This document shows positions 37,715 to 39,379 of a DNA stretch of 64,000 nt, piece after piece. Position 1 is the first letter of the stretch. Every line of letters starts with the position of its first letter. The position numbers were made by a program, and so were the translations under genes. The notes beneath the pieces are model-generated. The model worked only from the letters and a program-made list of their open reading frames with translations. It ran no database searches and was not told the origin of the DNA. This DNA comes from Escherichia coli (GTDB lineage Bacteria; Pseudomonadota; Gammaproteobacteria; Enterobacterales; Enterobacteriaceae), in assembly GCF_030013205.1 (NCBI RefSeq), contig NZ_CP122648.1; one strand, written 5' to 3'.

Positions 37715-39379
37715 TTAAAACGTTTCCCAGTTCTCCCCGCTATCTGCCACTGCCATTTTACGCGGCGTAGCTGGCGTCACGTTTTTTACCACAGCCGATG
37801 TTTCACGCTGCTGTTGCTGCTGTTGCTGAATCCGGAACACTGCCACAGCTTCGGTCAGGCGACTGGCCTGCTCTTCCAGCGCGGCGGCGGCAGCGGCAGA
37901 TTCTTCCACCAGCGCAGCGTTCTGTTGAGTTACCCGGTCCATCTCAGCAACCGCTAAGCCAGCCTGATCGATACCACGGCTCTGCTCATCAGAAGCAGAA
38001 GCAATTTCGCCCATAATGTCCGTCACGCGGGTCACGGCACTGACAATCTCCGCCATTGTTTCCCCTGCGCTTTCGACCAGCGTAGAGCCAACATCTACTT
38101 TCCCCACCGAGTCTTCAATCAGGCTTTTAATTTCACGAGCCGCCTGAGCGCTGCGCTGGGCCAGATTACGCACTTCACCCGCGACCACCGCAAAACCGCG
38201 CCCTTGCTCACCCGCGCGCGCTGCTTCAACCGCCGCGTTCAAAGCCAGAATATTGGTCTGGAAGGCAATGCCGTCAATTACGCTGATAATATCGGCGATT
38301 TTCTGCGAACTGGTGGAGATATCGCGCATAGTCTGCACCACGTTATCTACCACTTTGCCGCCGCGTTGCGCCGTTTCAGAAGCACTTAACGCCAGGTGGC
38401 TGGCCTGGCGCGCATTTTCGGCGTTCTGTTTCACCGTTGCGGTCAGTTGCTCCATGCTGGCTGCCGTCTCTTCCAGCGAAGCGGCCTGTTGCTCGGTGCG
38501 CGAAGAGAGATCGTTATTGCCGGTAGCGATTTCGCTGGCACCGCTATAGATGGCATTGGCCCCGTTGCGCACATCACCGACGGTACGCATCAGCTCTCCC
38601 TGCATATGGCGCAAACTCTCTGCCAGTTGCCCCATCTCATTAGAGCCATCCACCTCAATCGGTTTCACCAGATCGCCGCCTGCAATATGACGAATGCTGT
38701 CAATCAGGCGATTCATTGGCGCTACCAACGAGGCTTTAATACCGAACCAGACGGCGAAGATGACTGCCAGTACGACGATCATCACGCCCACCAGAATCCA
38801 CATCGCCTGGCTGTAGGAGGCATTATTATCGCTGACGGCGATATCATAGAGCCGATCGTTTTGCTCCATGTAAGCCACATACTGCTTCTCGAAACCGTCC
38901 TGATATCCCTGGGTCGGCTGATCAAAGAACTCGTTGATTTTGCCTGCACCTAACAGTTGGATCAGCTCCGCCAGCGCATTGTGATAAATATCGTAATTAC
39001 GTTTGATCTCTGCCGCTGCGGCGGTGCTCTGACGCGGGTCACGCGGCAACGCTTCGTAATCCGCCCAGTTTTTTTCCGCCTGTTTCAGCGAAATACTGGC
39101 ACTCTCCATCAGCTCAGCAACGGTTGAACCGCTACCAATATTATTCTGATCCATCATGTAGCGGATACCCGCGCGGTTGAGGGTGTTACGCGTCTGCAAC
39201 AACGCGACCCAGCTGCCATTCAGCGTGGATTGCTGCTGGCGAATGGTTTGTAAAACAGTGAAATTTTCTTTGTCATTCTTTAAGGCATTAAAGAACAGAC
39301 CGCCTGATGTCAGTTGTAAAAGGCCAAAAACGGCCAAAACCAGCAGTAAGCTGGTCACAATTTTGATACGTTTTAACAT
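37715..39379 (-). CDS. tsr: Methyl-accepting chemotaxis protein I (serine chemoreceptor), 554 aa with a seven-glutamine tract
   Basis: Two TM helices, HAMP and methyl-accepting domains, C-terminal NWETF pentapeptide. Confidence 0.95.

Follow-up and report, generated by a model that had tools for sequence, protein, structure and literature searches.

The glutamine tract near the C terminus of the Escherichia coli serine chemoreceptor Tsr is a real in-frame variable-number tandem repeat (VNTR) whose length has changed recurrently, most probably (at roughly 0.8) by a slippage-type process and with an effect on the protein that is neutral or nearly so. We read the tract as one CAG codon followed by n copies of the unit CAACAGCAG, encoding 1 + 3n glutamines right where the flexible arm begins that tethers CheR and CheB through the NWETF pentapeptide. 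Unit copies would be gained and lost by misalignment of overlapping 12-bp direct repeats in replication (slipped-strand mispairing), short-homology recombination being an alternative route, and the product of every length would stay in frame and full length. The allele in the window, by which we mean the whole 64-kb stretch of DNA analyzed, has n = 2 (7 glutamines, 33-residue tether) and is the majority form, probably ancestral; K-12, with n = 1 (4 glutamines, 30-residue tether), would carry a derived contraction. Each added unit gives the tether about 1.1 nm more contour and is predicted to alter the reach of the adaptation enzymes modestly. The importance of the finding is modest.

The tsr gene and its repeat unit

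The tsr coding sequence lies on the minus strand at 37715..39379 (554 aa plus stop), as judged from the open reading frame listing, Pfam, DNA identity and neighbors, and its 554 codons are uninterrupted, giving an intact gene. Pfam matches, all above the curated cut-offs, place TarH at residues 1–176, HAMP at 217–263 and MCPsignal at 327–484, which is the order of ligand-binding, HAMP and MCP signaling domains that defines a Tsr orthologue; a role in serine taxis is predicted by orthology. The gene shares 98% DNA identity with tsr of K-12 MG1655 and is a 100% match to that of the swine strain K_EC180, and among the 5,426 complete genomes of E. coli, 5,385 have a tsr-annotated match at 97–100% DNA identity. 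About 40 of the 5,426 had no tsr match, three matches were on records classed as plasmids, and one genome had a tsr fragment of only 212 bp, annotated as a Tar ligand-binding-domain protein.

Downstream of tsr the window carries lgoT (36305–37666) and lgoR (35177–36091), both neighbors common to K-12 and arranged as they are there. Between the convergent lgoT and tsr, at 37674–37703, an 11-bp-stem hairpin (ATGCCCGATAA...TTATCGGGCAT) with a T-run after it is likely their shared terminator. Upstream of tsr, at 39410..39436 on the minus strand, we read a sigma-28-type promoter-like motif, TAAAGTTT-N11-GCCGAAAA; it resembles the flagellar class-3 consensus, TAAAGTTT-N11-GCCGATAA, and is a candidate sigma-28 promoter. 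A 72-aa open reading frame on the opposite strand (37798–38016) is antisense within tsr and, having no support, was rejected as coding. The translated protein ends in SGENWETF, with the codons of the NWETF pentapeptide, the docking site of CheR and CheB (PMC8609364, PMC7390727), at 37718..37732 (minus strand) and the TAA stop directly after them at 37715–37717.

The glutamine tract itself covers residues 518–524 and positions 37808..37828 of the minus strand. Read from 37828 to 37808, its codons are CAG CAA CAG CAG CAA CAG CAG (QQQQQQQ), which the sequence, Tandem Repeats Finder and the alleles of other strains concur in dividing into CAG plus two copies of CAACAGCAG, a 9-bp VNTR with n = 2. 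The first copy, at 37817..37825 (minus strand), encodes Gln519–521 and was read directly from the sequence; the second, at 37808..37816 (minus strand), encodes Gln522–524 and was delimited by codon comparison with three other loci. The sequence-only reading had reported, within 37795–37835, seven consecutive glutamines in a 554-aa Tsr, had placed them in the linker ahead of NWETF and had given K-12 fewer, and the sequence bears it out on each count: the tract of MG1655 is CAG CAA CAG CAG, a single unit giving four glutamines in a Tsr of 551 aa. Deleting a single 9-bp period turns the window allele into exactly the K-12 sequence, and the window array amounts to two overlapping 12-bp direct repeats.

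Tandem Repeats Finder described the tract as a period of 9 with 2.4 copies and 100% matches, gave in addition a period-3 reading with 78% matches, and reported just three other tandem arrays with a score of 40 or more in the 64-kb window. In our own scan (period 4–15, at least 13 self-matching bases) it was the only perfect tandem array in the window, and comparable perfect arrays appeared in 0 of 100 composition-preserving shuffles of the 64 kb. A second small tandem repeat, GCGGCA in 3.2 copies, lies inside tsr at 37881–37899 (minus strand) and encodes AAAAAA, a run that is shorter by one alanine in a database protein (P0060, 553 aa). Elsewhere in the window, at 24625–24948, a 121-bp unit is present in 2.7 copies with 89% identity, and its consensus resembles tandem tRNA genes with spacers.

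We read the tract in the window and in 20 other genomes, and the formula CAG(CAACAGCAG)n fitted 21 of 21 alleles, with n = 1, 2, 3 or 4 and with the CAA codons in strict 9-bp phase throughout. A single unit (4 Gln, 551 aa) was found in K-12, ATCC 11775, ETEC4089 and SF-173; two units (7 Gln, 554 aa) in the window, O157:H7 SS52, O25:H4 and clone D i2; three (10 Gln, 557 aa) in LF82, HS, S51 and MEI3O-23; and four (13 Gln, 560 aa) in RM14723 and Z1323HEC0355. These differences between strains mark the tract as a real polymorphic repeat rather than a chance run. All 21 alleles keep the frame and translate to full-length Tsr, so that a phase-variation switch was rejected; for annotators it is useful that Tsr lengths of 551, 554, 557 and 560 aa all represent intact alleles. 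In the ATCC 11775 record (NZ_CP033092.2) the Tsr and LgoT proteins are identical to those of K-12 MG1655, under the same WP accessions, which is unexpected as ATCC 11775 is usually placed far from K-12.

With its perfect unit of at least 6 bp, differences by whole units and homoplastic change, the tract has the properties of an in-frame coding VNTR. It resembles the bacterial loci of this kind used in MLVA typing in its perfect head-to-tail units, whole-unit polymorphism, recurrence and preserved frame, but differs from them in its very low copy number (1–4) and few alleles, and would therefore have little typing power. Repeat-mediated, recurrent and reversible length change is likewise a feature of phase-variable contingency loci; unlike those, the array in tsr is short, its 9-bp unit never shifts the frame and gives no on/off switching, and the gene encodes neither a surface antigen nor a restriction-modification system. 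The CAG run with CAA interruptions, placed after an alpha-helix and variable in length, also recalls eukaryotic mixed CAG/CAA polyglutamine, whereas in tsr the steps are fixed at three codons, the range is 4–13, and the tract has no sign of an aggregation or coiled-coil role, the helix predicted for it being of low confidence.

Tract lengths across E. coli and its relatives

To count the alleles, we used a 64-bp query consisting of an 18-bp flank, the tract and a 25-bp flank, which matched 5,382 complete E. coli genomes. Judged by BLAST identity bands, with the lengths checked row by row for about 200 listed rows, approximately 4,056 genomes (75.4%) have a 7-codon tract, approximately 1,251 (23.2%) a 4-codon tract, approximately 72 (1.3%) a 10-codon tract and 3 (0.06%) a 13-codon tract. 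The genome collection over-represents clinical isolates and laboratory derivatives of K-12, and the latter inflate the 4-codon count. The bands of the 64-bp query comprised 3,257 exact matches, three of these being partial matches to the 13-codon genomes, 802 genomes at 95–99% identity, in which the sampled rows were all 7-codon alleles with SNPs, and 1,323 genomes at 80–90%. A synthetic 8-codon query divided the same genomes into 3,254 exact 7-codon tracts, 802 + 72, and 1,251 + 3. With a 13-codon query, exactly three 13-codon and about 72 10-codon genomes were listed and none with 16 codons; for the version of this query with 60-bp flanks (megablast), the bands were confounded and the alignments split at 18-bp gaps, and we used the listed rows and the 90–95% band. 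A repeated census with 64–67-bp queries in blastn mode gave numbers consistent with the megablast run.

The gaps between these lengths bear on whether the tract changes by single CAG/CAA codons, a process that could give any number of glutamines and for which one could cite the exclusive use of CAG and CAA codons and the period-3 reading of Tandem Repeats Finder with its 78% matches. Across the 5,382 genomes, the 90–95% identity band, where 5- or 9-codon tracts would be expected, held none; the synthetic 8-codon query found no genome with 8 or 9 codons; and the synthetic 6- and 1-codon queries found none with 6 or with 1–3. Trinucleotide slippage also fits poorly with the strict 9-bp phase of the CAA positions in all 21 alleles, and we regard it as very improbable. 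A CAG trinucleotide microsatellite, for which single-codon steps are the hallmark, was rejected on the same queries and the same empty 5-/9-codon band. Of the repeat slippage proposed in the sequence-only reading, the part that survives is misalignment of repeats as the likely origin of the variation, while the steps are whole 9-bp units of three glutamines rather than single codons.

It is hardly credible that the length differences are sequencing or assembly artefacts of a low-complexity stretch: nothing specific points that way beyond the general experience that short repeats are sometimes miscalled by certain technologies, the array is just 12–39 bp long, lengths are consistent within lineages across thousands of finished genomes, and where a strain was assembled independently more than once (LF82, HS, strain 8178 and K-12) the tract length is the same.

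O157:H7 and ST131-type strains have the 7-codon allele of the window as well. The window thus encodes the standard E. coli Tsr, and it is clearly K-12 that carries the unusual tether allele, a minority form and the shortest. The comparison with reference strains that had been proposed gives a difference from K-12 and identity with most other strains, and the tract that had been flagged as a variant is the form of about 75% of E. coli. Among the 802 complete genomes with SNP-bearing 7-codon alleles, 247 have CAG→CAT at codon 6 (QQQQQHQ); a QQQQQQH allele was not among the counted genomes and occurred only in database proteins and in one sequencing-run assembly. Interruptions of this kind should stabilize the repeat against slippage. 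In the open-access literature we found no description of tsr as a VNTR locus or of a polymorphism in this tract.

The 120 matches listed in a database protein search with the full-length Tsr were all near-identical proteins of E. coli or Shigella, none of them outgroups, and it was this search that brought out the interrupted QQQQQHQ and QQQQQQH alleles. One E. coli Tsr (P0001, 570 aa) has a 16-residue internal tandem duplication in the HAMP region, and the extra length of another (P0081, 568 aa) does not come from the glutamine tract. Outgroups were sought with a degenerate DNA pattern in one genome per species, a scan that was not exhaustive and returned 10 loci. Three of these were in Escherichia and the others in Kosakonia or in unrelated Burkholderiales MCPs. 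The scan missed Salmonella, Citrobacter, E. albertii, E. fergusonii and the usual E. coli representative, and the outgroup picture is thin as a result. The Tsr of Escherichia sp. E1V33 (554 aa) is 93% identical to that of the window and has a 33-residue tether (IQQTQQRQHEALPVV...) that lacks the tandem unit. SCPM-O-B-8794, labelled E. coli and representing its own species cluster, likewise has a tether of 33 residues, beginning IQQAQQRQHEA. In E. whittamii, CAG CAG ACG precedes two CAACAGCAG units in a 35-residue tether, and Kosakonia has no glutamine tract. The ancestral state of E. coli is thus probably two units, with a tether some 33 residues long, and the single unit of K-12 looks like a derived contraction; as the outgroups are few, our confidence in this polarity is moderate.

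Of the 150 top-ranking cluster representatives (clusters at 50% identity), 100 have a pentapeptide-like C terminus. The tethers of these 100 relatives are 29–218 residues long (median 54; 29–40 in the closest relatives), share no conserved sequence, and in none of them contain more than three consecutive glutamines. A polyglutamine start of the tether is thus a peculiarity of Escherichia, and the length of the tether is evolutionarily free.

Recurrent change of tract length

To relate tract length to the rest of the gene, we compared the 21 alleles after removing the tract (1,644 bp each, 87 variable sites). They form two main groups, one of alleles adjacent to TRAP-transporter genes (B2-type strains) and one of alleles adjacent to lgoT. 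The first contains tracts of 4, 7, 10 and 13 glutamines among alleles 5–13 nt apart, the second tracts of 4, 7 and 10, and alleles just 5–7 nt apart can differ in tract length. On a neighbor-joining tree of the 21 alleles, the Fitch minimum is 7 length changes (5–9 over 200 bootstraps), for which the reference points are 3, the minimum for four states, and about 11, the value under random assignment. Roughly, we infer that the tract changes about 100 times as often as the average tsr nucleotide.

The same distribution could in principle arise if a few ancient length alleles, products of as few as three mutational events, had been shuffled among lineages by homologous recombination. The region does recombine: the tsr of EC6622 is a mosaic of an ST131-like tail and a different body, an evident case of intragenic recombination, and the variable flanks (lgoT or TRAP transporter on one side, btsT or hpaR on the other) mark the region as recombination-active. 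Against this stand the SNPs close to the tract. The 4-glutamine allele found in MS20653 and SF-173 has the REAS SNP in common with its 7-glutamine sisters, at a distance of only 5 bp from the 3' side of the tract, whereas the 4-glutamine allele of K-12 has RETS at that position; a SNP shared by one 4-glutamine allele and 7-glutamine alleles points to an independent contraction. Tracts of 10 glutamines are combined with four distinct downstream haplotypes that first differ about 30 bp from the tract, and the upstream SNP in this comparison is 19 bp away. Transfer of the tract alone would need breakpoints within about 50 bp every time. We therefore give the shuffling of ancient alleles little credence as the whole explanation; recombination may explain some of the apparent recurrence.

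For the recurrent gain and loss of units that we favor, single-stranded DNA folding gave no indication of a structural trigger, since the tracts of 4, 7 and 13 glutamines were no more stable as hairpins than their shuffles. Slippage driven by a hairpin is thus unsupported, and simple misalignment of the direct repeats would be the most economical mechanism.

The neighbors of tsr vary among strains on both sides. The 3' neighbors are lgoT and lgoR in the window, K-12, HS and O157 and TRAP-transporter permease genes in LF82, clone D i2 and SF-173 (B2-type); the upstream neighbor is btsT in K-12 and hpaR in HS, S51 and 504838. On this evidence, tsr sits between two variable regions.

The tether and the predicted effect of its length

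The C-terminal flexible tether of the window Tsr comprises residues 517–549 (37733..37831, minus strand), 33 aa compared with 30 aa in K-12, as delimited from PMC10561060, PMC4692393 and the AlphaFold2 (AF2) pLDDT. The tract starts directly after residue 517, where the conserved helical bundle ends; in our 67-sequence alignment conservation stops at F515/R516. Work of the Parkinson laboratory describes residue 517 of Tsr as the last conserved one, followed by a 34-residue C terminus (PMC4692393), and a 2023 tethered-particle study counted a tether of 30 residues from I517, with R516 as the anchor (PMC10561060). The published work that we read on the flexible arm and NWETF of the high-abundance chemoreceptors Tsr and Tar concerns the same element of the same protein, but uses the K-12 allele (30-residue tether, IQQQQRETS...), whereas the tethers of natural E. 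coli are mostly of 33 residues and some of 36 or 39. The EPR evidence on disorder of the arm, as cited in PMC8609364, is for Tar only.

We built AF2 models of the 7- and 13-glutamine proteins on the 67-sequence alignment. In these the bundle helix ends at residue 513, a break follows at 514–518, and a short separate helix of low confidence (pLDDT 56–68) spans 519–532 with 7 glutamines or 519–535 with 13. Over the length of the tether the pLDDT drops from about 80 to less than 50, and the tail is below 50. This is compatible with a disordered arm having some nascent helicity, and the low-confidence helix on the tract suggests that the tract may not act as a pure random coil.

When the Tar tether was made 22, 29, 34 or 46 residues long, the fitted CheR distribution moved by 0.128 ± 0.048 nm for each residue, and it was argued in that study that linker length matches the positions of the methylation sites (PMC10561060). 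Using the equation and the Tsr site distances given there, we computed the values for tethers of 30, 33, 36 and 39 residues; within the wide errors of the parameters, this Tar-derived extrapolation predicts a CheR density at the main methylation sites about 20–30% lower than in K-12 for the 7-glutamine allele and about 50–65% lower for the 13-glutamine allele, that is, a density about 20–30% lower per added CAACAGCAG unit. A change of this size per unit would not be obviously negligible. An altered recruitment of CheR and CheB with tract length, as the sequence-only reading had suggested, is plausible in direction and size, as a small effect.

The variation might then be selected, lineages keeping tethers of 30, 33, 36 or 39 residues as a rheostat that tunes the reach of CheR and CheB, and with it the speed or precision of serine adaptation, to their niche. 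The recurrence of the length changes, the shift of the CheR distribution with tether length in Tar, the matching of length to sites argued from it and the predicted loss of CheR density all agree with such a role, as does the presence of the 10-glutamine allele in several gut-adapted strains (LF82, NRG 857C, HS and mouse isolates). However, a single allele dominates (75%) and the long alleles together make up 1.4%, relatives tolerate tethers of 29–218 residues, and the low copy numbers imply slow switching, unlike that of true contingency loci. Niche tuning consequently appears unlikely to us. We are also doubtful, and slightly more so, that the allele series constitutes a selectable tuning knob in which a unit would shift the reach of CheR and CheB along the methylation helices, or would act on the anchor by lengthening a nascent polyglutamine helix. 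If it did, lineages should differ measurably in the speed or precision of serine adaptation, and decades of quantitative chemotaxis modeling would rest on the shortest, minority allele. An arm acting as a length-tolerant spacer would leave the variation most likely neutral or nearly so, in keeping with the reading we prefer.

The K-12 receptor, the basis of nearly all quantitative chemotaxis work, has the shortest tether for CheR and CheB and a minority one, and E. coli offers a natural series of tethers whose lengths vary at the anchor end, in differences of exactly 3, 6 and 9 residues. Such a series is a ready test set for models of adaptation by tethered enzymes (PMC10561060) and may be of some practical value to chemotaxis researchers. 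Among deposited structures, the construct of 1QU7 terminates inside the tract and that of 8C5V at residue 516, while the HAMP-Tsr chimera of PDB entry 3ZX6 contains the 7-glutamine tail and 6S1K the tail of K-12.
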